NCBI GenBank assembly: GCA_003485765.1
Contig: DNHS01000051.1
Location: 71,747-135,746, forward strand
Direction: 5' to 3'
DNA length: 64,000 bases
Origin: Candidatus Omnitrophota bacterium
Lineage (GTDB): Bacteria; Omnitrophota; Gorgyraeia; Gorgyraeales; Gorgyraeaceae
Program-made: the position numbers and the translations under genes
The notes under the pieces: model-generated
What the model was told of the DNA's origin: nothing
Databases searched by the model: none
What the model saw: the letters and a program-made list of their open reading frames with translations, nothing else
Shown here: positions 3,349 to 19,660 of the stretch, one piece after another
How the letters are laid out: each line of letters opens with the position of its first letter
Numbering within the stretch: position 1 is the first letter of the stretch

Positions 3349-3410
3349 TATAACACGCTTACAATTTTAATAAAGAACAGAAATTTCTTACAATCTACCT
3401 CTAATACTTT

Positions 3411-3510
3411 AAACTAAGCCTCTAATAAACGCAAGGCTAAGATACAGGCTGGAAAAAAGGTAAAATCCTCTACTAACAAAAATAATGCCTACATTAAAGT
3501 GCAGTGAGCA
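3411..3510. promoter_or_regulatory. Copy 2 of the conserved upstream element, ~75 nt upstream of the HD-gene start
   Basis: CCTCTAATAAACGCAAGGCTAAGATACAGGCTGGAAAAAAGGTAAAATCCTC plus ACATTAAAGTGCAGTGAGCA; about 85 percent identical to copy 3. Confidence 0.5.
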
Positions 3511-4285: not shown

Positions 4286-4289
4286 TTTT

Positions 4290-4390
4290 AAACTTGCCCT
4301 CTAATAAACGCAAGGTTGATATACAATCTCGGAAAAAGGTAAAATCCTTTAAACATATACGAAGTCTCATTAAGGGGCATGCTGTGCAGC
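4290..4390. promoter_or_regulatory. Copy 3 of the conserved upstream element
   Basis: CCCTCTAATAAACGCAAGGTTGATATACAATCTCGGAAAAAGGTAAAATCCTTT plus CATTAAGGGGCATGCTGTGCAGC. Confidence 0.5.
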
Positions 4391-4396
4391 TTAATG

Positions 4397-5659
4397 TCAT
4401 TTAGGCGAACTTTCACGCCCCGGTTTCGCATAACAGTCTGACCACCATTTCCCGGTCTTACAAGAGACAATTAACTTCAACCCTTCCAGCTCTGTTTCCA
4501 TAATTACTTTGATTCGCTCAATGCTATCTTCGACTTCACCCTCTGGAACTGTAACAAGTATTCCGTCATGCAACATTGTGTCTATTTTAAACCCTGCTTT
4601 ATGCAGAGCGACAAGGCTGAATTTCACGATGTCAGCAGCTGTTCCCTGAATCCGAGTATTCACGGCTTGGCGCTCTGATTTCTTTCTTGCTACAATATTA
4701 GGAGAAATTATATCAGGAAGAAATCTTCGCCTGCCGAAATATGTCTCCGCAAATCCTGTTGAGCGAGCCTTCTCAATCGTCTCTTGCTTAAACGCCTCTA
4801 TCTCAGGAATATTTGATTTATAGGCTTTTATAAGCTTCTCTGCTTGATGAATAGATGTCCTGAGATTACGGGCAAGCCCTGCTGCTTCCTGTCCATAGCT
4901 CAAACCAAACCCGAGCATTTTTCCGAGCTTTCGCTCCTTGTCTGTTACGAGTTCGTATGGGATACCTTTCATATCGCTAACAGCTTTCTTATGCATATCC
5001 AAACCTTTAGCCCAGCAATCCTTGAAATATTTATCGTGGGAAAGAGCAGAGATAATGCGGAGTTCAAAACTATCATAGTCCGCTAAGATAAAAGTGCAGC
5101 CTTCGTCTGCGTAGATAACAGTTCTGCCAAGTTCTGGAATTCCTTGTAGGTTGTAGTCTCGGGTGTAAAGCCGGCCACTGGGACAGTCATCGGTGTAAAT
5201 GCAGGAGACTTTTCCCTGCTTCTTATCAGTTGCAGTATATAAGCCTTTAAGAGTAGAAAGAAGTCTCTCCAGATTCCTATATTGGGATATTTCTTGAGTG
5301 ACTGGATTATTGAAATCGGTGAGGGCTCTACGGTTAGCGATGTATCTACCGGTGCGGGACTTTCGTAATTTAACCCCTAACTGTGAAGAAAGAATCAAGG
5401 CTATGTCACGAGCACTATTAAGGTTGACCTTGCCTTTAAGATGCAGATTCTCATATAAGCTATCGCGAATTTTATCTTTATCAAGCCTGACTCCATCAAT
5501 TAGTGCTGAGAGTTTATTAACATCCACATTCAAGCCTCGATTCTGCATTGAGATTTTAACTCCCTGCATATCTTTTTCGAGGGCTTGAATGGTCTCTGAA
5601 TGAACTACTCTGTCGCAGGTATATATAGGCTCCCGCTCGTCTCGATATTTTAAAGACAT
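4397..5659 (-). CDS. Family A DNA polymerase, polymerase domain only (no 3'-5' or 5'-3' exonuclease domains)
   Basis: Motif A LADYDSFELRI (DYSQIELR), motif B KLGKMLGFGLSYG (K..NFG..YG), motif C MLHDGILV (HDE), RRFLPDI, QGTAADI. Collinear with the Taq/Klenow palm-fingers region. 420 aa. Confidence 0.8.
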   Translation of the reverse strand: MSLKYRDEREPIYTCDRVVHSETIQALEKDMQGVKISMQNRGLNVDVNKLSALIDGVRLDKDKIRDSLYENLHLKGKVNLNSARDIALILSSQLGVKLRKSRTGRYIANRRALTDFNNPVTQEISQYRNLERLLSTLKGLYTATDKKQGKVSCIYTDDCPSGRLYTRDYNLQGIPELGRTVIYADEGCTFILADYDSFELRIISALSHDKYFKDCWAKGLDMHKKAVSDMKGIPYELVTDKERKLGKMLGFGLSYGQEAAGLARNLRTSIHQAEKLIKAYKSNIPEIEAFKQETIEKARSTGFAETYFGRRRFLPDIISPNIVARKKSERQAVNTRIQGTAADIVKFSLVALHKAGFKIDTMLHDGILVTVPEGEVEDSIERIKVIMETELEGLKLIVSCKTGKWWSDCYAKPGRESSPK

Positions 5660-5835
5660 CCTCTTATACCTCAGGTTGGAAAAAATTTTAAAAGATACTT
5701 TTCGTGTTCCTCATTTCTACATAACTCATTGCTAATAAATAAGTTATGCCACCCAATAAATACATATAAACAACGGCGTTCTGGATTTGTCAAGCAAAAA
5801 AGTAAAGATTTTTTAACTCTCCGACGAGATTTTTA

Positions 5836-6519
5836 TTATTGTGTAAGAAATTCTTTTGCAATCTGCAAATCAATGACACCTTCGTAGTTCGAAAGAATTT
5901 CCAGATTGCCAAGGCAGTCTCGTGGACAAAAATTAGAGCGTTCTATTAAAAATTCAAATACGTTTTTTTCAATCTTAATTCTTTCAAGCTCAGAAATTCT
6001 GCTTAGTTTACTAATTAATACATCATTTGGTGGCGGCTTAAGAAAATATTTATCACTTCTTGAAAGCAGTCCTCCATCAATTCTGTTCAGGTCAGATGTT
6101 GCAAAAATGAAAGTCAAAAAATTGATGTCTTCTATAGGCTTTAAGAAGCCATCCTGCGCTTTATCAGGCATTCTATGAGCCTCGTCAAAAAATAGAACTC
6201 GCGGCATAAGTACAGAACAACTGAATCCTCTAAATTTACCCAACATTTTATTGATAGTTGCGTAATCGCACTCTGGGGAATTAAATTCCATATATTCAAT
6301 GCACTGCGAAAGCTCACCTTCGCATTCAATGATATCTTTGGCAAATATTCTCGCCAGCGTTGTCTTACCCAAGCCGAAATTTGAAGACAGGATTATCGAA
6401 TGAGGGAAAAATCCTTTCTTGCGATAACCATTCCAAATAATTTTGATATGCTCATTACCCCAAACCTCATCCAGTGTCTTAGGCCTGTATTTCTCTCTGA
6501 AATCTCTTAAGTCTTCCAT
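5836..6519 (-). CDS. Clamp-loader-like AAA+ ATPase (DnaX/RFC small-subunit-like)
   Basis: KYRPKTLDEVWGNEHIKII...SSNFGLGKTTLARIFAKDI matches the KYRP...GxxGxGKTT clamp-loader N-terminus. Walker B is FFDEAHRM. Confidence 0.6.
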   Translation of the reverse strand: MEDLRDFREKYRPKTLDEVWGNEHIKIIWNGYRKKGFFPHSIILSSNFGLGKTTLARIFAKDIIECEGELSQCIEYMEFNSPECDYATINKMLGKFRGFSCSVLMPRVLFFDEAHRMPDKAQDGFLKPIEDINFLTFIFATSDLNRIDGGLLSRSDKYFLKPPPNDVLISKLSRISELERIKIEKNVFEFLIERSNFCPRDCLGNLEILSNYEGVIDLQIAKEFLTQ

Positions 6520-6616
6520 TGAAAAGCTCCTTTCTGGTTAAACTGAAAAACTAAACAATTTATGCACTAACTTCTTGATAAATTTAAGGTTGCTGTTTAT
6601 CATGCTGCCATAAAAA

Positions 6617-7741
6617 CTAAGATAAACTAAGGGTCGAATAGCAGTTAGCTAAGAGATTATCGGCCGAACCAATAGGAAAATCATCAGTGAAAGAGTAGTC
6701 AATTCTATTCTTTAGTCCTCTTACAGGCAGCTCGTTGAGAAAACCTAAGGCAGATAACTTTTTGAAGTATTTAGCCGTAACATTATAATTCTTAAAACGA
6801 CTTCCTTCTGTGGCGACTGCCGTTACTTGGTTACGGGTAAATGTTCTGTTCTGAAATAGCTCCCTCTTATGCTCCCGGAGAAAAACAATGAATTCAACAA
6901 GATCCCTTGTTAACGAAGCATCATCTTCGTCAATATGAACGCTTGTTAGAATCTGCTTTGCCTCGTAAAAATCATCGTGGACTGCCCCTATATACCTTGT
7001 CTCGCCATCTGTTTCTACAGTCCGCTGATTCTGATTAAGGAAAGTAATTGAAGAGATAAGGTTTAGGGTTCTTTCCATTATTCGCGGAGCGTGGTATGGA
7101 CTTGCACCAAGCTTTATTTGCTCTGCAAAGGGAATACCCACCGCTAAATTATGATTTAAATTCTTCTGAAATGTGCGGTGCTTATCTTGCAGACATTTAG
7201 TTGCCCGTTCAGAAATAAATCCTTTAACTGTCCTGAGTAACTTCTGCCTGCAAAGAATACCCTCCCTTGCTTCTTGAGATGTATTAATTCCTGCGACAAA
7301 ACAGCGAGACCTATTCTCAATACCAAATATTTCTGAATTAACCGTGGTTTCAATAAGAGTAGTCGGCCCCTTAAGAACATGTTCCTCATTAGCAGTAGAA
7401 TAGGTAACTTCGCCCTCGCTAATCAACTCTCTTATATACTGAGCGAATTGAGGGTCTTCATATTTCTCGTAGATAAACAAAATCTTATCGCTTAAATCGC
7501 CTTGCCTAACAAGACTGGCAGGCGTGATACGTGAACGGAAAAGAATATCTTCTGAAGGGAACAAATCTAAAACTGTTTTGGCAAGATGTGACTTACCCAG
7601 CCCTGCCGGCCCGGAAACAAGAACAGAGATTTTGTATCGAGTCTTTCTGACCGTAGCAGCCAGATACAGCAGCAAAGCTAAGTTTAAATTATCTCCTACT
7701 CCTAAAATTTTCAAATCTTCCTTTAATTCCTGAATTTTCAC
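6617..7741 (-). CDS. P-loop NTPase with DnaC/IstB-like Walker A (SGPAGLGKSHLAK); putative replication initiation or helicase-loader protein
   Basis: Walker A near residue 43, Walker B ILFIYEK. Neighbours are the polymerase and clamp-loader genes. Confidence 0.4.
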   Translation of the reverse strand: MKIQELKEDLKILGVGDNLNLALLLYLAATVRKTRYKISVLVSGPAGLGKSHLAKTVLDLFPSEDILFRSRITPASLVRQGDLSDKILFIYEKYEDPQFAQYIRELISEGEVTYSTANEEHVLKGPTTLIETTVNSEIFGIENRSRCFVAGINTSQEAREGILCRQKLLRTVKGFISERATKCLQDKHRTFQKNLNHNLAVGIPFAEQIKLGASPYHAPRIMERTLNLISSITFLNQNQRTVETDGETRYIGAVHDDFYEAKQILTSVHIDEDDASLTRDLVEFIVFLREHKRELFQNRTFTRNQVTAVATEGSRFKNYNVTAKYFKKLSALGFLNELPVRGLKNRIDYSFTDDFPIGSADNLLANCYSTLSLS

Positions 7742-7752
7742 AACTACCTCCT

Positions 7753-7775
7753 TGTGACGTTAAGGTGACGTTAAG
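7753..7775. repeat. Paired TGACGTTA motif (TGTGACGTTAAGGTGACGTTAAG), copy 1 of 3; putative integrase arm-type site
   Basis: Near-identical pairs at 7996-8018 and 18331-18354, all within att-flanking DNA. Confidence 0.5.
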
Positions 7776-7915
7776 AACTATAATTCTACAAAAGCATCCA
7801 AACATACGCAAAGACATCTAACACAATAAAAAAGGCGTAACTACCTTAAAAATCAGGTGATTACGCCTAATTACTAATAAAAATAGAGGGTTATACAAAC
7901 CCTCTATAAACAAAT

Positions 7916-7935
7916 GGTGCCGAGGAGAAGAATCA
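7916..7935. repeat. 20-bp direct repeat of the tRNA-Phe 3' end (TGGTGCCGAGGAGAAGAATC): att core copy between elements B and A
   Basis: Identical to 18492-18511 inside the intact tRNA-Phe. The ~160 bp to its left (7753-7915) is ~80 percent identical to 18331-18491. Confidence 0.7.
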
Positions 7936-8420: not shown

Positions 8421-9488
8421 TTAGCTTTTTAGTTTAGGTATAAAACTTGCCTTAAAATATTCGTCTCTGATAACATCTTCCGGTGGGTTATTGTAGGTCT
8501 TCTCCATAACTTGTTTACTGCTCCATCCGCCTATTTCTTGTTTTGTCTTGCTTGAAAGCCCAGGACGGCTTGCAAAAGTATGTCTTAGATCGTGGATTGT
8601 AGCCTTGGCAATGCCTACTTTCTCGCATATCTCTATCATCTTATTCCTCATTTTATTCTTATTGAGAATATTACCCTTAGGATCAGAAAAAACATACCTG
8701 CCTCTGGCCTGCGCTATTGCCTGCTGTAATACTGATTTTAGCTCTGGGTGTATTGGTATAATTTTTGGCCTGTCAGTTTTGGTATTTTCTATGGTTATTA
8801 TGCCTTTAGATAGATCCACAAAACTTTTTTCCATCTTCCTGACTTCATCGCGCCTAAAACCACATATATATAAAGTCAAATATATAGCATACCAATTAAT
8901 ATCTCTGCTTTCTGCTTTGGCGCCTTCAAGAAATTTCGCAAGCTCTTCATCAGAAAGACAACGCCTCTTTTGAACCTTTATTATTTTAAGAGATCTAATT
9001 TTTGATACTGGATTAATACCTGAGATCTTATTGTGTTCTATCAAGATGGAAAACAGATTATATAAAGCCATCCTTTCAGAGTTTACGGTCTTAGTTGCCC
9101 TTTTCTTTTCGTTAATACGATAATCCATAAATTCTTTAATGTGTTCTGACTGTATTTCATCAAAGTATTTCAAGTTGGAGCGCTTTACACTAAGAAACTC
9201 CTTAAAATTCTTCATATATCCGTTGTACCTAATATATGAGGTATCATCAATGCTTCCCTTCTTGGTCCTTAACCAAAAATCTATGCCTTGTTCAAAAGTA
9301 ACTCTATAAGTAGGTTTATCTGTCATTGAACTAAATATCTGTTCCGGCATTTTTAAAAGCTTTAATCTGGCTTCTTTTTCAGTAAGAGACTTAATCTCTA
9401 TTCTCTTGCCAGAAAAATTAGTTATTTTAAAACAATACCAGGATCCACGCCGGTATATTTTTTTAGGAACTCTAAAGCGTTTTCTCAT
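8421..9488 (-). CDS. int: Tyrosine-type site-specific integrase
   Basis: C-terminal catalytic motifs: RRDEV...(R box), HDLRHTFAS (H-x-x-R), GGWSSKQVMEKTY (catalytic Y). N-terminal SAM-like domain. 355 aa. Confidence 0.85.
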   Translation of the reverse strand: MRKRFRVPKKIYRRGSWYCFKITNFSGKRIEIKSLTEKEARLKLLKMPEQIFSSMTDKPTYRVTFEQGIDFWLRTKKGSIDDTSYIRYNGYMKNFKEFLSVKRSNLKYFDEIQSEHIKEFMDYRINEKKRATKTVNSERMALYNLFSILIEHNKISGINPVSKIRSLKIIKVQKRRCLSDEELAKFLEGAKAESRDINWYAIYLTLYICGFRRDEVRKMEKSFVDLSKGIITIENTKTDRPKIIPIHPELKSVLQQAIAQARGRYVFSDPKGNILNKNKMRNKMIEICEKVGIAKATIHDLRHTFASRPGLSSKTKQEIGGWSSKQVMEKTYNNPPEDVIRDEYFKASFIPKLKS

Positions 9489-9717: not shown

Positions 9718-10365
9718 TTACCGCTTTTCCCCTTGCAAATTACAAGAGTGTTTTTGTAACACTCTTTTTACCTGGATATAGCTGATCCTGTCTTTCTTAG
9801 AGATATCCTTATTGTATTCGCGCGCTATCTTCCTCAGACCAAGGTCTTTATGCTTAGCAATGGACTTTAACCTTTTTATATCAATCTCTTTTTTAGGCCG
9901 ACCACCTTTGTATTCGCCTTTTTCTTTTTTTTGTTTAATACCTTCCCGAACCCTAATCCCAAGCATCTTGCTAAAGTTATTAGCCATATAAGCGAAGATC
10001 ATCATAATGATCTGCCACATGTCATTATTGCTATCTATACCTTCCTTTATACTAACGAATCTACATTTATGCTCTTCTACGACTTTATGAAGATCTGAAA
10101 CTATCTTGGTAGGCGTTTCTCTTGAAAATCTATCAAGCATGTAAACTACAAGTATATTAAATTCTCTCAGTCTGATTCTTTCCAATGCTTCTTCAAAGAC
10201 CTTTCTCCTCGTACCTTTATAAGCGCTCTCGTATTCCTGGAATATTTCATAAGGCCAGCTTTGGGATTCGCAATACTTCTTACAGGTATTAATTTGATTC
10301 TCTACATCCTGTTTTGATTCATCAGTACTGCACCGCGCATAAATTATAGCCCTTATTTTTTCCAT
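9718..10365 (-). CDS. Serine recombinase (resolvase/invertase family) with C-terminal HTH
   Basis: From internal Met: MEKIRAIIYARCSTDESKQDVENQ (YARVST..Q catalytic-serine motif), ...VVYMLDRFSR. The ORF track extends to an upstream alternative start at 10443. Confidence 0.8.
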   Translation of the reverse strand: MEKIRAIIYARCSTDESKQDVENQINTCKKYCESQSWPYEIFQEYESAYKGTRRKVFEEALERIRLREFNILVVYMLDRFSRETPTKIVSDLHKVVEEHKCRFVSIKEGIDSNNDMWQIIMMIFAYMANNFSKMLGIRVREGIKQKKEKGEYKGGRPKKEIDIKRLKSIAKHKDLGLRKIAREYNKDISKKDRISYIQVKRVLQKHSCNLQGEKR

Positions 10366-10439
10366 AAATACCTCTTTATTTTTCCACACATGCTTATAAA
10401 ATTTACCACAACTATAAATAATGTTTTCCATACACATCC

Positions 10440-10860
10440 ACATGGAAATTTGTGGTAATTTCCAGGTAACCTCAGGTAAATATCGTTTCCTAGGAAAATA
10501 CCCCAGGACCAGCGTCGGGAAGAATTAGGCTTTTTCCTATAGGACTTTGTGGAGACTTTCCAGGTAAAAGACAGGAGTTTAGCCGGCCACCAGGAAATTA
10601 CCTCAGGACCAGCGTCGGATATAAAAGGTCTGATTTTACCTGGAAAACAAGGTCCTAGTCTTATAGGACCGAGGGAGCGGAAAAAGTCCGCTAAAGTCCG
10701 CAAAAGTCCGAGCGTACAAGTCCGTAAAAATAACCGTGTTTTTAACGTATTGAATTCCATGGCAACCTATCAGTTTGACCTGGATCACCTGGATTATTTC
10801 CAGGACCGCTTCCATGGCCTTTTAAGGACTTTCTCAGGAAAATAAAGGTCACTATTGTTA
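10440..10860. repeat. Repeat-dense non-coding block: inverted repeat GGAAATTtgtggtAATTTCC; 2x CAGGACCAGCGTCGG; 2x TATAGGAC; 4x AAGTCCG; several TTCCAGGTAA / TTACCTGGAA. Candidate res site or origin.
   Basis: Repeats are visible directly in the sequence. Overlapping ORFs 10353-10760(-) and 10549-10845(+) are judged spurious. Confidence 0.55.
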
Positions 10861-12439: not shown

Positions 12440-12790
12440 CTTATCATTACATATCATTGCTTGTCATTCGTTGTCATTCGTTACTATTCCTTGACATTCC
12501 TTAACGAATACAAACTTGGCTCTAAGTAAATTTTTATCAACGCGTCTGCCATACCCCCTAAAAAGTGGGTTACTCGGTTACCTATCTATGCAATGCCTTG
12601 AAAAACATAAGCTTACATGGTAACCCAAGCTTAATTTCTCGGTTACTTCTCGGTTACCTATTTGCTTTTTCGGTTACCAGTAACCGAAAGGTAACCCAGT
12701 TTTTATAACTCGGTTACCTATTTATCCTATTGTAAATAATATGGTTATAGTTTTTGGTAACCCAGTAACCGAGGTAACCGAGACAGAGGG
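12440..12790. repeat. Iteron array (putative replication origin): at least 10 copies of CGGTTACC / GGTAACC(G) in both orientations (e.g. CTCGGTTACCTAT x3). An AT-rich TCATT(n5) tract lies at 12440-12500.
   Basis: Seen directly. Copies near 12573, 12620, 12639, 12649, 12671-12697, 12709, 12756-12784. It lies between the small Zn-finger gene and the 3' end of the replication-protein gene. Confidence 0.6.
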
Positions 12791-12795
12791 AGAAA

Positions 12796-14469
12796 TCAAT
12801 CACAGTTTTCCAGCCTTTTTTCGATTTCTTCCAAATGTATCCGGAACCCTTTTATATTCTTACCATCAATCTTTCTTTGCTCTGCACGGCCTTTGACAAG
12901 ACCGGCATATCTTAAAGCTTTTCCAAGCCATCTGCCTTTATTTTGCTTCTTCTCATCATTTAACCAAGCAAAGTCTTCTTCGCCGGATCCCTTAAAAATC
13001 TCTAATAATTCATTAATGGTCCAAAAATCATCCATCTTAGGATATTCCCTTTCTGAGAAAACTTCCTTAAGCACCATAAGAACCTTTGGAGTAATTGTGT
13101 CTTCTCTGCGCGCTTCTTTTTTAAGCTTTTGGATCTCAAGAGCGTGATTTCTTATTTCGTCATATAGGTTAAATTTTGAATCGCTATCATTATCTATAAC
13201 CTTGGCAATCGTAAGAATAGGTTTGCTTAATTCCCATTCCCTGCCTAATATTTCTTCATCTTTTATTGTTTGATAAAATACCTTTACCTGGAGAGAATAA
13301 GTAAGCATTATATGGTAGAGCTTATCGCGGATATCTTGAAAACTTTTATCATTATTGTTTAACTCACGGTTTTTAATCTCCTTGTTGCCGGTTTTTAACA
13401 TTATAATAGGGATACACCTTGAACTTAATGAAGACTCAAATCCCTTTATTGAAGCAAACATCTTAGGAGAATATGCCTCAAATTGTTTAGGTAGCCATTG
13501 ACTATATTCATTAACTTGTTCGCATTTACCGCAAAATGATCCTTTTTTATATCCAGCGTTATACATGGCTATTAAAGCTTGACTATCTTGATCATCAGAA
13601 CGCCTTAATCTTTCTATTTCATCAACACAGCAAGTGGAATGATTATTATGAACCGCTCTGATTATATAAGCAGGAGATGAATTGAATGTCAACTCACCAT
13701 TGAAAGATAACCAGGCTGTAAACATTAAGGTTTTAGTCTTGCCGGATTCCATATCTCCATTAAGGTGAACATAGGGGAAGGTATCAAAAATTCTCTGGAA
13801 GTACGTAGCAATAATCCAAAGGGTTTTATATTTAGTCCAAGTGTCATTACCTAAATCAATATAACTTTTACTAAGCTTATAAATATCGGTAAAAACATCT
13901 GATATTTTTATGTTTTCCTTACCATTAGTAAATAACTCAATACTCTTATCTGACCATCTTTTATTTAAACAAGGGCTCCTTTCTGAATAAAGATTCATCT
14001 TTAATAATTCCTCATCTGAAAGACGAATTTTTTGTTTTTCAGAAGTTATTATATAATTAATAGATTTTACTTTATTATCTACACAGATATTAACTGGAAT
14101 AGTGACGTAAGCTGTGTCATCGATAAAATCTTGCGCCGGAGTAATAATTGATAGGTGTGGAGCGTAATTAATAACTGGGGTTTCGTCTTTATCGATACCC
14201 ATTTCCATGGCATATCTTTTTACTGTCTTTAAGGCATCTTTTTGATTAACTATGCCGACTTCGCTTAAACGTTTTATACACAATACTCTGTCTTGCTCTG
14301 CTAATAAAGGAATAGAGCGTATAATTAAATCTCTTTTTTCTGCCTGGACCGGCAATTCCAGAGTCTCCCATTCCTTTATTAGATTATGTACTTCTTCTAT
14401 TATTTTTTTCTTCTTTTCATCTTCCTTAAGTCTTGTAGTTAAATCTTTTTCTTCATCTACTCTATTCAT
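12796..14469 (-). CDS. Putative replication initiator / primase-helicase-like P-loop NTPase
   Basis: 557 aa. Walker A HLNGDMESGKTKTLMF (~res 238), Walker B CCVDEIERL. Adjacent to the iteron array. Family not resolved. Confidence 0.45.
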   Translation of the reverse strand: MNRVDEEKDLTTRLKEDEKKKKIIEEVHNLIKEWETLELPVQAEKRDLIIRSIPLLAEQDRVLCIKRLSEVGIVNQKDALKTVKRYAMEMGIDKDETPVINYAPHLSIITPAQDFIDDTAYVTIPVNICVDNKVKSINYIITSEKQKIRLSDEELLKMNLYSERSPCLNKRWSDKSIELFTNGKENIKISDVFTDIYKLSKSYIDLGNDTWTKYKTLWIIATYFQRIFDTFPYVHLNGDMESGKTKTLMFTAWLSFNGELTFNSSPAYIIRAVHNNHSTCCVDEIERLRRSDDQDSQALIAMYNAGYKKGSFCGKCEQVNEYSQWLPKQFEAYSPKMFASIKGFESSLSSRCIPIIMLKTGNKEIKNRELNNNDKSFQDIRDKLYHIMLTYSLQVKVFYQTIKDEEILGREWELSKPILTIAKVIDNDSDSKFNLYDEIRNHALEIQKLKKEARREDTITPKVLMVLKEVFSEREYPKMDDFWTINELLEIFKGSGEEDFAWLNDEKKQNKGRWLGKALRYAGLVKGRAEQRKIDGKNIKGFRIHLEEIEKRLENCD

Positions 14470-14483
14470 CTTTTCATCTCCTT

Positions 14484-14714
14484 TTAAACCATATTAAATA
14501 TGGCAGATTTTACATCAGTCATTGCGTTTTTCAAGATGGTTATACCAACCAGGCCGTTATTATAAAATTCTTTCACTAGTTCTTCTCTTTCTCTGATGTC
14601 CTCAAAAACAAAAATGGCTCTTCTGCTTTCTCCTTGTATGCGCGTAATTTTCATTCCTTTCGCTTTTAAGAAAGCTGAGAGCCAGAGATCCTGAGTAATA
14701 AATTCTTTATTCAT
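14484..14714 (-). CDS. Small hypothetical protein (possibly DUF5659-like)
   Basis: MNKEFITQDLWLSAFLKAKGMKITRIQGESRRAIFVFEDIREREELVKEFYN. The start region AAAGGAGATGAAAAGATGAAT is duplicated at the start of the 12796-14469 gene. Confidence 0.4.
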   Translation of the reverse strand: MNKEFITQDLWLSAFLKAKGMKITRIQGESRRAIFVFEDIREREELVKEFYNNGLVGITILKNAMTDVKSAIFNMV

Positions 14715-14747
14715 CTTTTCATCTCCTTTTTTATTCAATCCTATCTT

Positions 14748-14951
14748 CTACTTTATTCCAATTGCTAAATCCGACTTCTTAATTTTTAATGCCTTGCAAA
14801 TTTTATCTACTAGTTTTTCGCTTGGCTCCAAACGACCGATCATAATTTTACTAAGATTTGTTTCGTGTATCCCAACCATTTTAGCCAGTTGCCATTGTTT
14901 AATGCTTTTTCTGAACAAAATAGTTTTTAATGCCAAATTATTTATTTGCAT
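14748..14951 (-). CDS. XRE-family (Cro/CI-type) HTH transcriptional regulator
   Basis: SIKQWQLAKMVGIHETNLSKIMIGRLEPS is a classic XRE helix-turn-helix. Confidence 0.6.
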   Translation of the reverse strand: MQINNLALKTILFRKSIKQWQLAKMVGIHETNLSKIMIGRLEPSEKLVDKICKALKIKKSDLAIGIK

Positions 14952-15026
14952 ATGTTCTCCTTAACTTTATTATTGATGTTAATATATTATCATTATTATT
15001 AATCATAATCTTTAGAGTAAAAAAAA

Positions 15027-15599
15027 TTACTGTTTTTGTCTCAATTCTAACGCTATCTTTTTAAGATCTAACGAATTAGCTCTTTCTGTAACGTTCTTTG
15101 ACAAGGCCGTATTGCGTTCTTCTAATTCTCTAATATTTAAAAATAACTTCTCTGTAACTTCTTTATAAGCGTTGTCCTTCTTCTCTACTTGTTGTTTTAT
15201 TTGTTTAACATTCTCTGGTTCAGGTTTATAAATATATTTATCCGGATTTTCTGCCCAGGGAATAAACATTTCTTTCTCTCTCTGTGTAAGCGCCACATTT
15301 TTGCCTAGTTTCTCTAACGTTTGTATTATTAAATTGTATGCCAGCATGTAGTTTATCTGTTCATTTTGCCAAATAAGTAAAATAGAAATTTCTTTGATTG
15401 AAAATCCTAAATATAACAAGTGACAAATTAATAATATTCTATGAACATCTCTTTCTGAATAAAGCCTATAACCTCCCACAGTGTAGTGTGGTTCTATTAA
15501 TTTCTTTTGTTCGTAATTTATTAATTTATTACGCGTTAGACTGTATCCGAAAGACTTTAAATGTTTAATTAGGTCTTTTACGCTATATTCTTCTGCCAT
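15027..15599 (-). CDS. MerR-family transcriptional regulator
   Basis: YSVKDLIKHLKSFGYSLTRNKLINYEQKKLIEPHYTVGGYRLYSERDVHRILLICHLLYLGFSIKEI, a MerR N-terminal HTH plus coiled-coil tail. Confidence 0.65.
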   Translation of the reverse strand: MAEEYSVKDLIKHLKSFGYSLTRNKLINYEQKKLIEPHYTVGGYRLYSERDVHRILLICHLLYLGFSIKEISILLIWQNEQINYMLAYNLIIQTLEKLGKNVALTQREKEMFIPWAENPDKYIYKPEPENVKQIKQQVEKKDNAYKEVTEKLFLNIRELEERNTALSKNVTERANSLDLKKIALELRQKQ

Positions 15600-15755
15600 A
15601 TGCCTCTGTAAGGTTATTATTGATAATCATATATTATTACCTATAATAATGTACACCACAATTATTTGTTTGTCAAGTATTTTGAAAAATTTCTTTTACC
15701 TTATTATAAATAGAGGCAGGAAATTGCTTATTGCTTCTGGTCTGCTGTTTTAATT

Positions 15756-16898
15756 TCATCTTTCTTCAATATCTTCATCACATACAAAACCATAAACAAA
15801 ATTGTTTTTTTGTGATTTATCTGTAAGACGTATTATACGACAATAAAAATTTTTGTCTTTTAAGCCTCGTATTCTTGCGCCAAGATAAACTTCTTCATCT
15901 TTATCTAATTCATTAACTATTTTACTGTCTATAGAAGCTTTTTCATAAACCTTTGTAGCCGTATTTTTAATTTTTACTGTTTTTATATTTCCCTTAGCAA
16001 GCCTTTGCTGAGATATATTCTCTTGTTTAAGTAACAAGATTTCTATAGTTTTTCTAAGAGAATATTCAGCATTTTCTTCATTATATATATCATCTTCGAA
16101 TTCGTCTTTTATAACCCATTCTTTGTCTTCTTTATAATAATATACTTCTGGAGTAATGCGTCTTATATTCCAATAATCTATAAGAGAAATGCCTATGGCT
16201 AACAAATCTTTATCTAATCCATTATAATCTAGTACAATATAGTCTGTTGGTTCTTTAACATGTTCTTCTATGTATTCTTTAGTTGTTGCATAAGAAGGTG
16301 CCATTGACGCAAAGGATCCTAAGACATTAGCTGTTCCTTTTTCAAAATCCCTAATATCATATTGTTTTTCAAAAGCTAAATATATAACTTTTCTACAATT
16401 TATTTGACACTCTTTATAATTTTGGGATTTCAAGAAGTCTTCGGCTTCTTTCAATAAACATTTATTTTCACTATCTTTTAACAAATCAATTAGTGTTATA
16501 TTATTAAAGTTAATTTTAAGATATCTCGCACTTGACTCTTCAAAAAAATTATTTACAACAACAGGAAAATCTCTGCAGTCTTCGATGCGAGGCAATATCC
16601 CATGATGTTTTAAATTAACGCGTTGCCGATTAAGTTCTAACATTTTTGTACTCAAAGGGACATCTTCCCCTTTTTCTTTCTTGATTATCGAGAAATATCC
16701 TGGAAAACTTACATTATCATTTATAGTCACTTTTAATTGTTCACATAGGGCTATTAAAAATAATTCAACAGCATCTTGTAACAAAATAATGCCGGCACCT
16801 ATTCTTTCTGCATTCTCAGCAATTTTAAAACAGTCTTTGCCCAAAAAATATAAAAACTTGGCCATCTGAATTTTTCTTATAACAGATTGTTCTAACAT
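15756..16898 (-). CDS. Hypothetical protein (cargo gene 3). An N-terminal helical region carries an R-x6-H motif (NRQRVNLKHHG) that could be a HEPN-like RNase motif.
   Basis: 380 aa with no confidently recognised domain. The HEPN suggestion is pattern-level only. Confidence 0.45.
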   Translation of the reverse strand: MLEQSVIRKIQMAKFLYFLGKDCFKIAENAERIGAGIILLQDAVELFLIALCEQLKVTINDNVSFPGYFSIIKKEKGEDVPLSTKMLELNRQRVNLKHHGILPRIEDCRDFPVVVNNFFEESSARYLKINFNNITLIDLLKDSENKCLLKEAEDFLKSQNYKECQINCRKVIYLAFEKQYDIRDFEKGTANVLGSFASMAPSYATTKEYIEEHVKEPTDYIVLDYNGLDKDLLAIGISLIDYWNIRRITPEVYYYKEDKEWVIKDEFEDDIYNEENAEYSLRKTIEILLLKQENISQQRLAKGNIKTVKIKNTATKVYEKASIDSKIVNELDKDEEVYLGARIRGLKDKNFYCRIIRLTDKSQKNNFVYGFVCDEDIEER

Positions 16899-17024
16899 TT
16901 GATCCTCTGTGGGTTATTAAGCATATGATAGTCTTGTAGGGTAATATAGACAAGGAAAAAATAAGGTAGAAAATGACAACTGGTAAGCAAAAACTGATTC
17001 TCAGGCTAGCTATAAAAATACATC

Positions 17025-17843
17025 TTAAAAATAAAGCCTAACAAAAATACTATGGGTATCTTCCTTTGTTTCTTTTGTCGCAAATTTACTCTGTTTTTCA
17101 AGTTCATCTACTACTTCTATTATTTTTTTTATATTGGACGTACCTATCCCATGCATATTGATATACTTAAGACCATATTTTTTCTTTAATTCTATCTCAC
17201 CTTTTATATCATTTTTATTCATTATATGATTAACAAATACACAAAGAGGCAATTCATCAACAACCATTTTATACATACTTTTAAATTTATCTAAAACTAT
17301 TTTGTCTTCGTATTTCCCTTCTAAAGAACCATGATAAGGAATTAAAACTTCTTCTAAATAACGCGCCGAACACAAATTAGCTATATTCTTCCCTTTATCT
17401 CCATATCTTTGCATAATATCGCACTTCAATTGTCTTGTCTTGGGTTTATCATGCGCCTCAAAAAAACTCCTCATATACAAAGATGCTCTCCATATATTAA
17501 AGTCTTCAGGAGGGATTTTAGGTTTTAAAAAATCTAAAACTTCCTTATTGCCTGCTGAACTGTCTTTCGCCTTAAAATCTTCTATTGATTTTTTAGTTTC
17601 ATCTTCCAATATAGAATAGCCATCTTCTATAGCTTTGGGTAATATATCTTTAAGGGCTTTTCTTTCGGAGGAGTCTAGTTTAGCAAGATTTATCGTGAGA
17701 TTCTTAGAATCATCATGGTATTCTGTTTTTTGACTATGATCATCCTTTTTAATATTTATATTATTAGATAGGTCTATATTGAAATTAATATCGGGAAGTT
17801 TAAGATTGGAAAGTAACTTACCTAAAGCTTCTAGGAAGCTCAT
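17025..17843 (-). CDS. Hypothetical protein (cargo gene 2)
   Basis: 272 aa. Start overlaps the stop of the 81-aa upstream gene by 4 nt (ATGA), suggesting translational coupling. Confidence 0.5.
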   Translation of the reverse strand: MSFLEALGKLLSNLKLPDINFNIDLSNNINIKKDDHSQKTEYHDDSKNLTINLAKLDSSERKALKDILPKAIEDGYSILEDETKKSIEDFKAKDSSAGNKEVLDFLKPKIPPEDFNIWRASLYMRSFFEAHDKPKTRQLKCDIMQRYGDKGKNIANLCSARYLEEVLIPYHGSLEGKYEDKIVLDKFKSMYKMVVDELPLCVFVNHIMNKNDIKGEIELKKKYGLKYINMHGIGTSNIKKIIEVVDELEKQSKFATKETKEDTHSIFVRLYF

Positions 17844-18085
17844 TGATTATTATCTTGAATAGTATCTGCCAATTCTATGACAGAATTTATACCTGTCCTA
17901 ATAAATACTAAAGATCCTTTCTTTAGGCCCACGAAGTCTTTTAATTCCAAAGGTTCCCCATCAGAAGACGGAACTTTCTGCCCTGACTGCTTTTCTATGA
18001 TATATCCGTCTGCATCTACGGCGCAATCAAACAAATCTAGAATATCCTCTTTGGTATTTTTTTCAAAAGTTATTATTTTACTCAT
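17840..18085 (-). CDS. Hypothetical small protein (cargo gene 1)
   Basis: 81 aa. First gene of the cargo transcription unit next to the att site. Confidence 0.45.
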   Translation of the reverse strand: MSKIITFEKNTKEDILDLFDCAVDADGYIIEKQSGQKVPSSDGEPLELKDFVGLKKGSLVFIRTGINSVIELADTIQDNNQ

Positions 18086-18104
18086 CGCTTTGTCTCCCCT
18101 ACAG

Positions 18105-18136
18105 AGATAAAAAAGGAAACACTTGATAGTTGTTTC
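18105..18136. terminator. Symmetric hairpin AAAAGGAAACA-cttgatagt-TGTTTCCTTTT; a bidirectional rho-independent terminator candidate between the att region and the cargo genes
   Basis: 11-bp perfect arms flanked by A-run and T-run, so a hairpin followed by U-run is formed on either strand. Confidence 0.45.
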
Positions 18137-18330
18137 CTTTTAAGGTTATCTCCGAAATACATTTTTTGTCCCCACCGTATAACTATAGTATAATTATACT
18201 CTAAATTATACTCCTGTCAAGCCTTACGCGTCAATATATTTTTTTGCATCATCTTCTCTGCTTGATTCTATCTTTCAGTATAAACAATACATAAAAAACT
18301 CTAAACGCATTTGTATTAATATAATAATTC

Positions 18331-18354
18331 TGTGACGTTAGTGTGACGTTAAGG
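18331..18354. repeat. Paired TGACGTTA motif (TGTGACGTTAGTGTGACGTTAAGG), copy 3 of 3, in the att-proximal arm
   Basis: See 7753-7775. Confidence 0.5.
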
Positions 18355-18491
18355 ATAAGGAATATACAAAACTATACAAACATATACAAAAGGATACAAC
18401 TAAATAAAAAACGTGTAACTTCTCTAAAAATCAGGTAATTACGCCTAATTGCTATAAAAACTATGGGTTACGAAGAACCCTTGAAAACAAG

Positions 18492-18566
18492 TGGTGCCGA
18501 GGAGAAGAATCGAACTTCCCACGCCGGCCTTTTCAGGGCCGCGCTCTACCACTGAGCTACCTCGGC
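18492..18566 (-). tRNA. tRNA-Phe (anticodon GAA); integration target
   Basis: Reverse complement GCCGAGGTAGCTCAGTGGTAGAGCGCGGCCCTGAAAAGGCCGGCGTGGGAAGTTCGATTCTTCTCCTCGGCACCA folds as a cloverleaf. Anticodon loop CTGAAAA, CCA encoded. Confidence 0.85.
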
Positions 18567-18624
18567 GATACAAGATTTACACTATTTTAACAAACCATCT
18601 TATTATGTCAATACAAAATTACCT

Positions 18625-18664
18625 TAACTTTACAATCCGTGCCTGGCACGATTTGTAAAGTTAG
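18625..18664. repeat. Palindromic element, subfamily b: TAACTTTACAAtccGTGCCtGGCACgatTTGTAAAGTTA
   Basis: Perfect 11-bp outer arms plus an inner GTGCCnGGCAC palindrome. Same architecture at 48194-48232. Confidence 0.6.
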
Positions 18665-18694
18665 CGTGGATACACTATTAATCTGCCATCTTCT

Positions 18695-19660
18695 TTAAGT
18701 ATCAGAATCTTTATGTCTTTGATAGATTTTGCCAAAGTAAGGCCTTTTTTTCTCTCCCATTACAAATATAGCTGTAGAAAGCGCATCTGCTCCTTCTGCT
18801 GAATCCAGCGCTACTGTAACGCTTATAATACCCTGACAAGGTTCTCCTGTAAGAGGGTTTATTATATGAGAATATCTTTTGCCTCCTATTTCAAAAAACC
18901 TTTCATAATTTCCAGAAGTGCTTATAGCCCTGTCAGTTAATTCAAAACTATAGAGCAATTTGCCTTTCTTTCTAGGATCCTGAACCCCTATTTTCCAGTT
19001 TTTCTTCCCAGGCGCATTGCCTAATGCAAAGATATTCCCTCCAAGATTTACAAGGCCGTTTTTAATCCCATTCGACACCAGGACATCTTTTGCCCTGTCA
19101 ACTGCATAGCCCTTAGCAATCCCGCCAAAATCTATTTTTGTGTCTTTATTCAAAAATCTTATGGATAACTTTTTAGAATCCAGCTCTATATTTTTATATC
19201 CAACGGATTTCAGCGCATTCTCTATATCATCTTTATCTGGCATTGATTTATGTTTACGAACAAAACCCCATATCTCCATAAGAGGAGCCACTGTTACATC
19301 AAAAGCTCCATCTGAAATCCTGCTATAATATATAGATCTTTCTGTCAACCTAAATGCTTCCCCGCTCACTTTTATATTTTCAAGCCCTGCTATTTTATTT
19401 ATCTTTGATACCTCGCTATTTTCATCAAATTTACTAAAAACTTTTTCTATACGCTGCATCTCCTTAAACGCCTCGCCTACAGCCCGAACAGCCTTATCTC
19501 TGTCCGGGCTGTAACAGGAAATCTCGCAGAAAGTATCCATCAGGATCCTTGTTTCTTTCACTGACAAACCTTGGCTGCATCCTGCTAAAAAGAATATCAG
19601 AAAATAAAAAATTCCGCATCCTTTCAATATAAAAAGATGCGGTTGTTTTTTAAAAATCAT
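18695..19660 (-). CDS. apbE: FAD:protein FMN transferase (ApbE family) lipoprotein
   Basis: Lipobox LAGCSQ and the signature GGIAKGYAVD (FGGIAKGYAVDRA). 321 aa. Confidence 0.8.
   Translation of the reverse strand: MIFKKQPHLFILKGCGIFYFLIFFLAGCSQGLSVKETRILMDTFCEISCYSPDRDKAVRAVGEAFKEMQRIEKVFSKFDENSEVSKINKIAGLENIKVSGEAFRLTERSIYYSRISDGAFDVTVAPLMEIWGFVRKHKSMPDKDDIENALKSVGYKNIELDSKKLSIRFLNKDTKIDFGGIAKGYAVDRAKDVLVSNGIKNGLVNLGGNIFALGNAPGKKNWKIGVQDPRKKGKLLYSFELTDRAISTSGNYERFFEIGGKRYSHIINPLTGEPCQGIISVTVALDSAEGADALSTAIFVMGEKKRPYFGKIYQRHKDSDT

Follow-up and report, generated by a model that had tools for sequence, protein, structure and literature searches.

The 64,000-nucleotide (nt) stretch of DNA analysed here, referred to as the window, originates from a metagenome-assembled genome (MAG) of Candidatus Omnitrophota and carries, at one end of an integrative element that we call element A, three genes coding for proteins of 81, 272 and 380 amino acids (aa). 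All three are located on the minus strand, at the positions assigned to them in a first-pass annotation of the same DNA. The gene of the 81-aa protein (17840–18085) precedes that of the 272-aa protein (17025–17843), with the stop codon of the former and the start codon of the latter overlapping in the four nucleotides ATGA (17840–17843), as the annotation had described. The gene of the 380-aa protein (15756–16898) follows behind a minus-strand spacer of 125 nt (16899–17024), which contains only a weak promoter-like site (16953–16925) and a weak 4-bp hairpin with a T-run. A public protein collection lists the three proteins as hypothetical (HAZ10813-15), with a Candidatus Omnitrophota MAG as their source, and each has many homologues, which identifies the three open reading frames as real genes. 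They are flanked on one side by genes of a MerR-family (15027–15599) and an XRE-family regulator (14748–14951) and on the other by a minus-strand gene of tRNA-Phe(GAA) (18492–18566), which was detected by ARAGORN and by the tRNA model of Rfam with 65.5 bits. This tRNA gene is the integration target of element A: the 19-nt core of its attachment (att) site, corresponding to the last 19–20 nt of tRNA-Phe, is found at 18493–18511 and again at 7916–7934, thus in exactly two copies in the window compared to 0.01 expected, and the element codes for a tyrosine integrase (8421–9488) and a resolvase (9718–10443). With this tyrosine integrase, with the tRNA gene on one side and the direct repeat of the tRNA 3'-end on the other, element A shows the hallmarks of a tRNA-targeting integrative element. 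With a GC content of 29–34%, the three genes have the lowest values of the element, whose core ranges between 33 and 41%, compared to 39% in the host. Their earlier placement as cargo at the tRNA- and att-proximal end of an integrative element is thus supported.

The first-pass annotation had viewed the three genes as one compact unit, a view that does not hold up against the genomic contexts of their homologues. These instead favour two independent cargo modules whose adjacency is peculiar to this genome, the first being a predicted RNase of the HEPN type resembling abortive-infection (Abi) proteins and the second a two-gene operon, below referred to as the pair, that is a candidate for a toxin-antitoxin (TA)-like system, an interpretation that we regard as probable. 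We have retrieved about 20 other contexts of the pair and 86 other loci of the 380-aa family, the latter originating from metagenomes, MAGs, two plasmids and one IMG/VR contig. In every locus where upstream DNA is present, a homologue of the 81-aa protein directly precedes a homologue of the 272-aa protein, and in 18 of 20 loci the gap between the small and the large gene amounts to –4 to +12 nt. This arrangement is shared by six Omnitrophota MAGs and by members of the Margulisiibacteriota, Planctomycetota, Victivallales, Woesebacteria and Nanoarchaeota and several Thermoplasmata. A relative of the 380-aa protein was found within 5 kb of the pair in none of the about 20 other contexts, and an all-against-all comparison of the neighbours detected no third conserved gene beside it. 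Conversely, the pair does not accompany the 380-aa family in any of its 86 other loci, among which this family also has no universal neighbour, its upstream genes being specific to certain clades (a 249-aa gene in four loci, a 145–153-aa gene in another four and a gene of a big methylase in three). This mutual absence indicates that the two modules have come together in the window by chance, as cargo accumulated, and do not form a system of three genes; a gap of 125 nt separates them here.

In scans with single sequences against Pfam, NCBIfam and PADLOC, none of the three proteins showed a match, and a scan against PHROG returned nothing besides phrog_37995, a family of unknown function that matches the 380-aa protein (E 2.5e-12, residues 3–177). 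Comparisons of profiles of the three families with sequences in the Protein Data Bank (PDB) returned histone H3, SbtB, RRF and TRIM71, which we rejected as matches at chance level. The initial impression that none of the proteins contains a recognizable domain is thus correct at the level of single sequences, but HEPN, SH3b-like and Alba-like folds emerge from structure models.

The 380-aa protein was modelled with AlphaFold2 (AF2) from an alignment of 74 homologues, which are 32–55% identical to the query. The resulting model has a predicted local distance difference test score (pLDDT) of 91.0, which exceeds 90 for residues 1–130, and a predicted template modelling score (pTM) of 0.75. It displays an N-terminal HEPN four-helix domain (16509–16898), a helical middle part and a C-terminal SH3b-like barrel (15759–16001). 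HEPN domains are defined as bundles of four helices, often with a helical insert that separates helices 2 and 3, and as containing an R-x4-6-H motif where helix 3 terminates as well as an acidic residue in helix 2 (PMC3710099). All three features are found in the model and the alignment of the 380-aa family. The domain contains helices at residues 4–22, 30–54, 83–99 and 111–127, with residues 65–76 forming the insert. Helix 3 (83–99) is closed by R93-x4-H98 (16605–16622) as part of the sequence N-x-Q-R-V-N-x-K-H, in which R93 and H98 belong to the eight residues that are invariant in the alignment, and helix 2 (30–54) contains D42 and E45, both conserved in at least 90% of the sequences. The HEPN signature proposed in the first-pass annotation was an R-x6-H motif; R91-x6-H98 does exist and the HEPN assignment is supported, yet the two residues that are invariant among the 74 homologues form the canonical R-x4-H motif, R93-x4-H98. 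In a search of the PDB with Foldseek, the HEPN region matched the HepT toxins 7bxo_H (TMt 0.64, root-mean-square deviation 3.5 Å, 124 columns) and 6m6u_D, YutE (1ylm) and the HEPN domain of sacsin (3o10), with probabilities between 0.5 and 0.94. The Pfam family HEPN (PF05168) is detected in 43 of the 74 members at E≤1, with a best value of 4e-5 and most matches below the cut-off of 22 bits; where coordinates are visible, these matches cover residues ~21–122. For the C-terminal 80 residues, Foldseek finds numerous SH3b domains of bacteria and phages in the PDB and in BFVD, with a probability of 1.0. The middle domain (~135–300) contains the invariant residues C168, R169, E177, P250 and W261, and a partial HEPN match at residues 144–172 in two family members raises the possibility that it might be a degenerate second HEPN domain.

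In combination, the fold, the invariant R-x4-H motif, the acidic residues of helix 2 and the weak Pfam matches within the family support the assignment of a HEPN-type RNase signature to the 380-aa protein. Several observations weigh against this assignment or against a role in defence. The Foldseek E-values of the HEPN region are only 0.4–1, with none at or below 1e-3, and the protein of the window itself shows no match to the Pfam HEPN family. A comparison of the 380-aa profile by hhalign with HepT-like and AbiU2 proteins from related loci gave no signal, a result of little weight since the templates were single sequences of other HEPN families. The residue following R93 is a valine and not the usual polar residue. 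Finally, none of the three proteins is recognized at E≤1 by a family of PADLOC-DB v2, a collection that also covers the Abi families and PDC candidates.

The neighbourhoods of other members of the 380-aa family provide a link to biological conflict. In three loci (L001–L003), the HEPN-family gene overlaps by 4 nt with the end of a gene coding for a 1214-aa enzyme of the MmeI/Eco57I/TaqI_C type, and on a Parabacteroides plasmid (L016) it directly follows the gene of a homologous N6-methylase, between genes of SNF2 and TIR proteins. Other members reside between serine recombinases near AbiEii, beside a PIN/Phd pair, among transposases and integrases, near repABC on a Rhizobium plasmid or next to portal and capsid genes on the IMG/VR viral contig. 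Contexts of this kind are those of a conflict protein that is mobile and encoded by a single gene, and they make a defence or toxin role of the 380-aa protein plausible. To this extent, the description of the locus as candidate defence or toxin module can be retained, although no PADLOC model matches, and defence is here used as an inference. HEPN proteins linked to restriction-modification (R-M) systems are seen as second-line RNase toxins acting in the manner of PrrC (PMC3710099). Together with the observed contexts, this view leads us to predict that the 380-aa protein is a latent RNase and Abi-like toxin, with activity and trigger both inferred. Its HEPN domain, with an intact R-x4-H motif, would act as metal-independent RNase in a protein that is most likely dimeric and silent until triggered, and the helical middle part and the SH3b-like barrel would likely serve as regulator or sensor. 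The protein could thus be an abortive-infection toxin of the AbiU2/AbiJ type or a second-line toxin resembling PrrC, for which toxicity and any anti-phage effect are predicted properties.

The large N6-methylase/type IIG genes located upstream of the HEPN gene in two unrelated replicons (L001, 2360–7185; L016, 1571–5891) are homologous. The Parabacteroides version of the HEPN protein comprises 304 aa and does not contain the C-terminal part.

When compared to known systems with HEPN domains, the 380-aa protein shows partial similarity to several of them. With stand-alone HEPN Abi proteins such as AbiU2, AbiJ, AbiV and those of the DUF4145 type, it shares the organization as single gene, the location on mobile elements and the occasional R-M neighbourhood, and some DUF4145 members are fused to SH3 domains (PMC3710099). 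It differs from these families in that it does not match their Pfam and PADLOC models, that its unusual combination of a HEPN domain with a long helical domain and an SH3b-like barrel is unannotated and captured only by phrog_37995, and that a valine follows the arginine of the motif. The relationship to PrrC and RloC is manifested in the R-M linkage of some homologues, where the gene overlaps with that of a type IIG enzyme (L001–L003) or is placed behind an N6-methylase gene (L016), whereas the protein does not contain an ABC-ATPase domain and the linkage, which is absent in the window, is confined to about 3 of about 90 loci. With the MNT-HepT systems, which are classified as type II or type VII TA systems, the protein has the HEPN fold in common and its best structural matches are HepT toxins (6m6u, 7bxo), yet no NTP_transf_2 gene adjoins the 380-aa gene and none is conserved in the 86 loci. 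The 380-aa protein is also three times larger and contains extra domains. It is thus a protein with the structure and motif of the HEPN group that is placed outside of MNT-HepT, PrrC/RloC and the Abi families contained in Pfam and PADLOC.

In contrast to this stand-alone gene, the second module consists of two tightly coupled genes, whose products belong to large families. The 81-aa family contains at least 297 cluster representatives with lengths of 76–96 aa throughout, all of them devoid of Pfam domains and of informative names, and we have detected no relatives of this family among Pfam families or PDB sequences. The protein is acidic (isoelectric point, pI, of 4.4), as are its homologues in 18 of 20 loci (pI 4.4–5.4), and hhalign found no relation between its profile and the other two families. 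A profile search with the 272-aa protein identified 774 representatives (clustered at 50% identity) at E≤1e-3, of which 401 reach E≤1e-30, and their length is 250–300 aa in nearly every case. The pair is found in Bacteria and Archaea, including lineages of the Candidate Phyla Radiation (CPR) and of the DPANN group.

The model of the 272-aa protein contains a disordered N-terminal third, followed by a helical domain and a C-terminal domain of β-α-β-α-β-β topology (17028–17246), which is composed of strands at residues 201–204, 227–233, 256–261 and 265–271 and helices at 210–222 and 235–250. A Foldseek search of the PDB with this C-terminal domain identified Alba/Sso10b2, ALBA1, Rpp20/Rpp25, Pop6/Pop7 and SpoVS (8xap, 1udv, 7dl8, 6cwx, 3iab), all with a probability of 1.0, TMt values of 0.5–0.7 and E-values of 0.01–0.06. 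It is the sole structural match of the pair, and the domain has the topology of the Alba/IF3-C-like fold and superposes on structures of the Alba family. The resemblance extends over the C-terminal 70 residues, which share the fold with the Alba, Rpp20-Rpp25, Pop6-Pop7 and SpoVS proteins and contain a glycine-rich loop of the sequence H-G-x-G-xx-N preceding helix 2, a loop that we take to resemble the 'A-R-G-R-A-I' sequence of Alba and the 'I-H-G-x-G' sequence of Smr. Compared to both Alba and Smr, the sequence similarity is at noise level and the domain is attached to 200 residues that have no assigned fold. Among 148 diverse members of the 272-aa family, the conserved positions are D114, K140, G148, K/R150, G151, N156, L157, C158, Y162 (100%), P169, F187 and F203 (100%), and the helical domain is characterized by the motif YG-x-(K/R)-G-x-N-I-x-N-L-C-S-A-x-Y (17358–17408). 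A second conserved group, Y223-G followed by H231 (99%)-G-x-G234-xx-N237, is located in the loop at the junction of β2 and α2. The strictly conserved polar residues of the family are D114, K140, N156, Y162 (100%) and H231 (99%). Both glycine-rich motifs are located at the N-termini of helices, which is the usual geometry for the interaction with a phosphate backbone, and nucleic-acid binding is thus the best-supported predicted property of the protein.

Weak yet recurrent Pfam matches in the 272-aa family to prok_STING (9 of 148, best E 6e-4), Smr (4 of 148), RRF (3 of 148) and Alba (1 of 11) are unconfirmed, and the fold matches of the 272-aa protein do not include a STING structure. An identity as Smr domain, which is characterized by LDLHG at the N-terminus and (T/H)GxG in the centre, was rejected, since the N-terminal LDLHG motif is absent and the first strand reads F-V-N with no D-x-H, leaving only the H-G-x-G loop (H231 to G234) as common feature.

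The pair is preceded by its own regulatory region. On the minus strand ahead of the 81-aa gene, two overlapping near-consensus sigma-70 promoters (18193–18234) are located at 18234–18205 and 18220–18193. One of the two has the sequence TTGACA-16-TATAAT and matches the consensus in 12 of 12 positions, the other has TTGACG-18-TATAAT and matches it in 11 of 12. A promoter of the TTGACA type is found upstream of the pair in nearly all homologous loci. In the window, a perfect 12-bp palindrome, GTATAATTATAC (18188–18199), overlies the –10 region and is a possible candidate for an operator. The leader of the operon extends over roughly 100 nt and contains a minus-strand hairpin with a T-run (18102–18154, inner stem 18112–18140), which is placed between the promoters and the ribosome-binding site (RBS) of the 81-aa gene. 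The hairpin had been interpreted as a terminator that insulates the genes from read-through originating from the att and tRNA side. Its existence is confirmed, in extended form, but it does not simply act as such an insulator, as it is located downstream of both promoters of the pair and thus forms part of the operon leader instead of separating a promoter from the tRNA gene. In this position it cannot shield the operon from its own promoters. We regard the hairpin as a probable attenuator of the leader, or as a terminator that would hold expression low and block read-through as well. The same order of promoter, hairpin with U-tract and RBS is found in L009 and L018 and is absent from most loci, and the leader is not conserved across loci of the pair. 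A search of positions 15000–19000 with Rfam found only the tRNA, so that the leader is not a known riboswitch or small RNA.

The contexts of the pair reveal a pronounced association with tRNA genes. A co-oriented tRNA gene within 500 nt is found in 7 of 20 independent contexts, the window included, compared to 1 of 86 loci of the HEPN family, which were used as control (Fisher p = 2e-5). When tRNA genes and fragments are both counted, 10 of 21 contexts are linked (L004, L005, L009, L018, L019, L021, L027, L031, L033 and the window). Such fragments take different forms. Upstream of the pair, L018 contains the 5' 40 nt of tRNA-Arg and L021 a 5' portion of tRNA-Phe, each with the intact tRNA downstream, and in both loci the insert between the tRNA 5' half and the full tRNA has a size of 1.6–1.9 kb and carries the pair alone. 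L009 contains two 5' fragments of tRNA-Pro upstream of the pair and L033 a 3' part of tRNA-Met (nt 30–77) just downstream. The break points of these tRNAs are at the anticodon loop, a classical position for the crossover of integrases. This circumstantial evidence is most simply read as a location of the pair, seen also in the window, at the margins of islands integrated into tRNA genes, where it tends to outlast the decay of their remainder, and such survival is the behaviour expected of an addictive module. In the two closest loci (L021 and L022, 82% identical), the common DNA consists of the promoter and the two genes only. This 1.24-kb unit is what moves or is retained, and we detected no terminal repeats or conserved ends of this unit.

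Other genes in proximity of the pair include TacA/GNAT (TacAT) together with IS200, an AAA_15 ATPase with VapBC and IS200, AbiU2, MNT-HepT, an MNT-like gene, an integrase and LAGLIDADG and Bro-N genes, with housekeeping genes found elsewhere. The families with HEPN or MNT character that occur beside the pair are four in number, namely AbiU2, MNT-HepT, an MNT-like gene and the HEPN-SH3b protein described here (L033, 3527–4204; L038, 6345–7000; L025, 3988–4620; window, 15756–16898), which may reflect co-localization in islands or a looser functional link.

The described features provide the pair with the anatomy of a type II TA operon. A small upstream gene overlaps with a larger one in a tightly coupled and conserved operon that has its own strong promoter with a palindrome at the –10 region, its spread across Bacteria and Archaea is patchy, and it is found in clusters with TA, insertion sequence (IS) and Abi genes as well as at the borders of islands linked to tRNA genes. 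Neither protein, however, resembles a known toxin or antitoxin family, and with ~270 aa the large protein is bigger than most toxins. The pair is thus an operon of TA-like anatomy that belongs to no known family and of which only the C-terminal domain of the larger protein, with its Alba-like fold, can be placed.

Of the alternatives to two modules, a single defence or toxin system, in which the two smaller proteins would serve to regulate or neutralize the HEPN protein, appears extremely improbable. It would account for the adjacency of three genes on the same strand and for a boundary between the 272-aa and 380-aa genes that does not contain a strong terminator, and HEPN or MNT genes of other families do adjoin the pair in three loci (L033, L038 and L025). 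These neighbours belong, however, to different families, with MNT-HepT already being a complete system by itself, and the separation of the pair from the 380-aa family in all of their about 20 and 86 other loci largely refutes a joint function. With the two modules being treated as independent, the 380-aa protein could alternatively be a non-catalytic scaffold with HEPN fold that binds a ligand or protein, akin to the substrate-binding HEPN domains of nucleotidyltransferases, and not an RNase. The Pfam matches to PF05168 point in this direction, as they concern the HEPN-T family, many of whose members are not nucleases (PMC3710099), and the Foldseek E-values of the HEPN region are weak. A scaffold is nevertheless unlikely, since non-catalytic HEPN domains typically lose the R-x4-6-H motif (PMC3710099), whereas R93 and H98 have remained invariant across 74 sequences that are only ~32–55% identical overall.

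For the pair, our main reading is that of a TA-like module for addiction or defence. The self-contained operon (17025–18234) combines two strong promoters, the palindrome at the –10 region, the leader hairpin and two translationally coupled genes, whose larger product would bind or damage RNA (or DNA) and whose acidic smaller product would neutralize or regulate it as candidate inhibitor or antitoxin-like partner. A further-reaching proposal, which we consider possible, sees in the pair a very widely distributed two-component system for addiction or defence that has not been described before, with an effector based on an Alba-like, nucleic-acid-binding fold and with preferential retention at the edges of tRNA islands; in the most extreme form, it would insert itself at the anticodon loops of tRNAs. 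The TA-like interpretation of the pair draws on the promoter unit of the pair, on the common unit of L021 and L022, on the TA, Abi and mobile genes in its vicinity and on its association with tRNA genes. It is weakened by the lack of a known toxin or antitoxin fold in either protein in comparisons with Pfam, NCBIfam, PHROG, PADLOC and PDB sequences, by the small protein, in which no DNA-binding domain was found, by the moderate confidence of the AF2 model of the 272-aa protein (pLDDT 73) and by searches of phage genomes, plasmids and IMG/VR, in which neither family was found. It is also challenged by L004 and L019, where the pair is located inside a Thr-Tyr-[pair]-Gly tRNA cluster next to housekeeping genes in conserved synteny, a setting that equally fits a cellular role related to RNA. 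The main rival, a factor for the handling of tRNA or other RNA in the cell, such as an RNA-binding protein with a chaperone-like partner, builds on this setting, on the co-oriented tRNA genes found in 7 of 20 contexts, on the absence of both families from phages and plasmids and on the Alba-like fold, which is common to the RNase P/MRP subunits Rpp20/25 and Pop6/7. We view such a factor as somewhat doubtful in light of the patchy distribution of the pair over very distant phyla, its presence as cargo of an integrative element in the window, its own promoter and the TA, IS and Abi genes that often adjoin it, and since flanking tRNA halves resemble an att-type scar rather than the design of an operon. 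Very improbable, finally, is a small mobile unit that targets tRNA genes by itself, with the 272-aa protein as an unrecognized DNA-processing enzyme. The 1.24 kb shared by L021 and L022, the inserts of L018 and L021 that carry the pair alone between a tRNA 5' half and a full tRNA and the conservation of Tyr162 (100%) and His231 (99%) in the 272-aa family would be compatible with such a unit. Yet half of the loci of the pair have no tRNA or fragment nearby, terminal repeats or conserved ends were not seen, the 272-aa protein has no similarity to a recombinase or transposase fold, the pair of the window travels as ordinary cargo on an element with a tyrosine integrase of its own, and the same pattern is explained if larger islands decay while an addictive module is retained.

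The 380-aa protein adds an unannotated family with the architecture HEPN, helical domain and SH3b to the catalogue of predicted stand-alone RNase toxins, with R93 and H98 as candidate catalytic residues and with a connection to type IIG restriction enzymes that recurs among its loci. The pair, in our view, matters more, as it defines large 'dark' families in very distant and mostly uncultivated phyla that are named by no annotation resource and whose association with tRNA genes and scars of tRNA halves is statistically strong. If it were a true TA or defence system, it would represent a new effector family and help to explain what persists at decayed tRNA islands, and if it were a true RNA-handling factor, it would define a new family of Alba-fold proteins common to Bacteria and Archaea.

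The region between the pair and the tRNA gene includes an arm of element A adjoining the att core (18331–18491), which starts with GTGACGTTAAG repeats and contains, just past tRNA-Phe, a terminator-like hairpin of the tRNA gene itself (18480–18465). A similar arm of ~180 nt flanks the second copy of the att core, with 7753–7934 and 18331–18511 being 74–83% identical and both opening with GTGACGTTAAG repeats. To the left of position 7935, we found no homologue of any element A protein. The matching arm on this side suggests a second element, or the remnant of one, with the same arm in a tandem integration.

Within element A, the intergenic region upstream of the gene of its 557-aa core protein (12572–12730) contains three copies of ACTCGGTTACCTAT[CT]T with a spacing of 76 and 60 nt, which are iteron-like and may be part of an origin or of a binding site for a regulator. 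Relatives of the 557-aa protein, whose cargo slots could be compared, were searched for in IMG/VR and none was found. A 26-nt repeat of 96% identity (14460–14485 and 14705–14730) spans the RBS and first codons of the 557-aa gene and of a DUF5659 gene, which thus have a common translation-initiation region. The MerR-family regulator (15027–15599) shows a weak PADLOC match to mad1 of the MADS system (E 1.5e-5), which is restricted to the helix-turn-helix region and probably reflects a generic similarity of this fold. To the left of element A, members of a family of 65-nt direct repeats, which are 72–83% identical, are found in intergenic regions at 497–561, 3408–3472 and 4287–4351. To the left of the tandem arm (4397–7741), the minus strand codes for a 420-aa family A DNA polymerase consisting of the polymerase domain only and for two AAA-type ATPases of 227 and 374 aa; these genes may belong to the neighbouring element or remnant as cargo.

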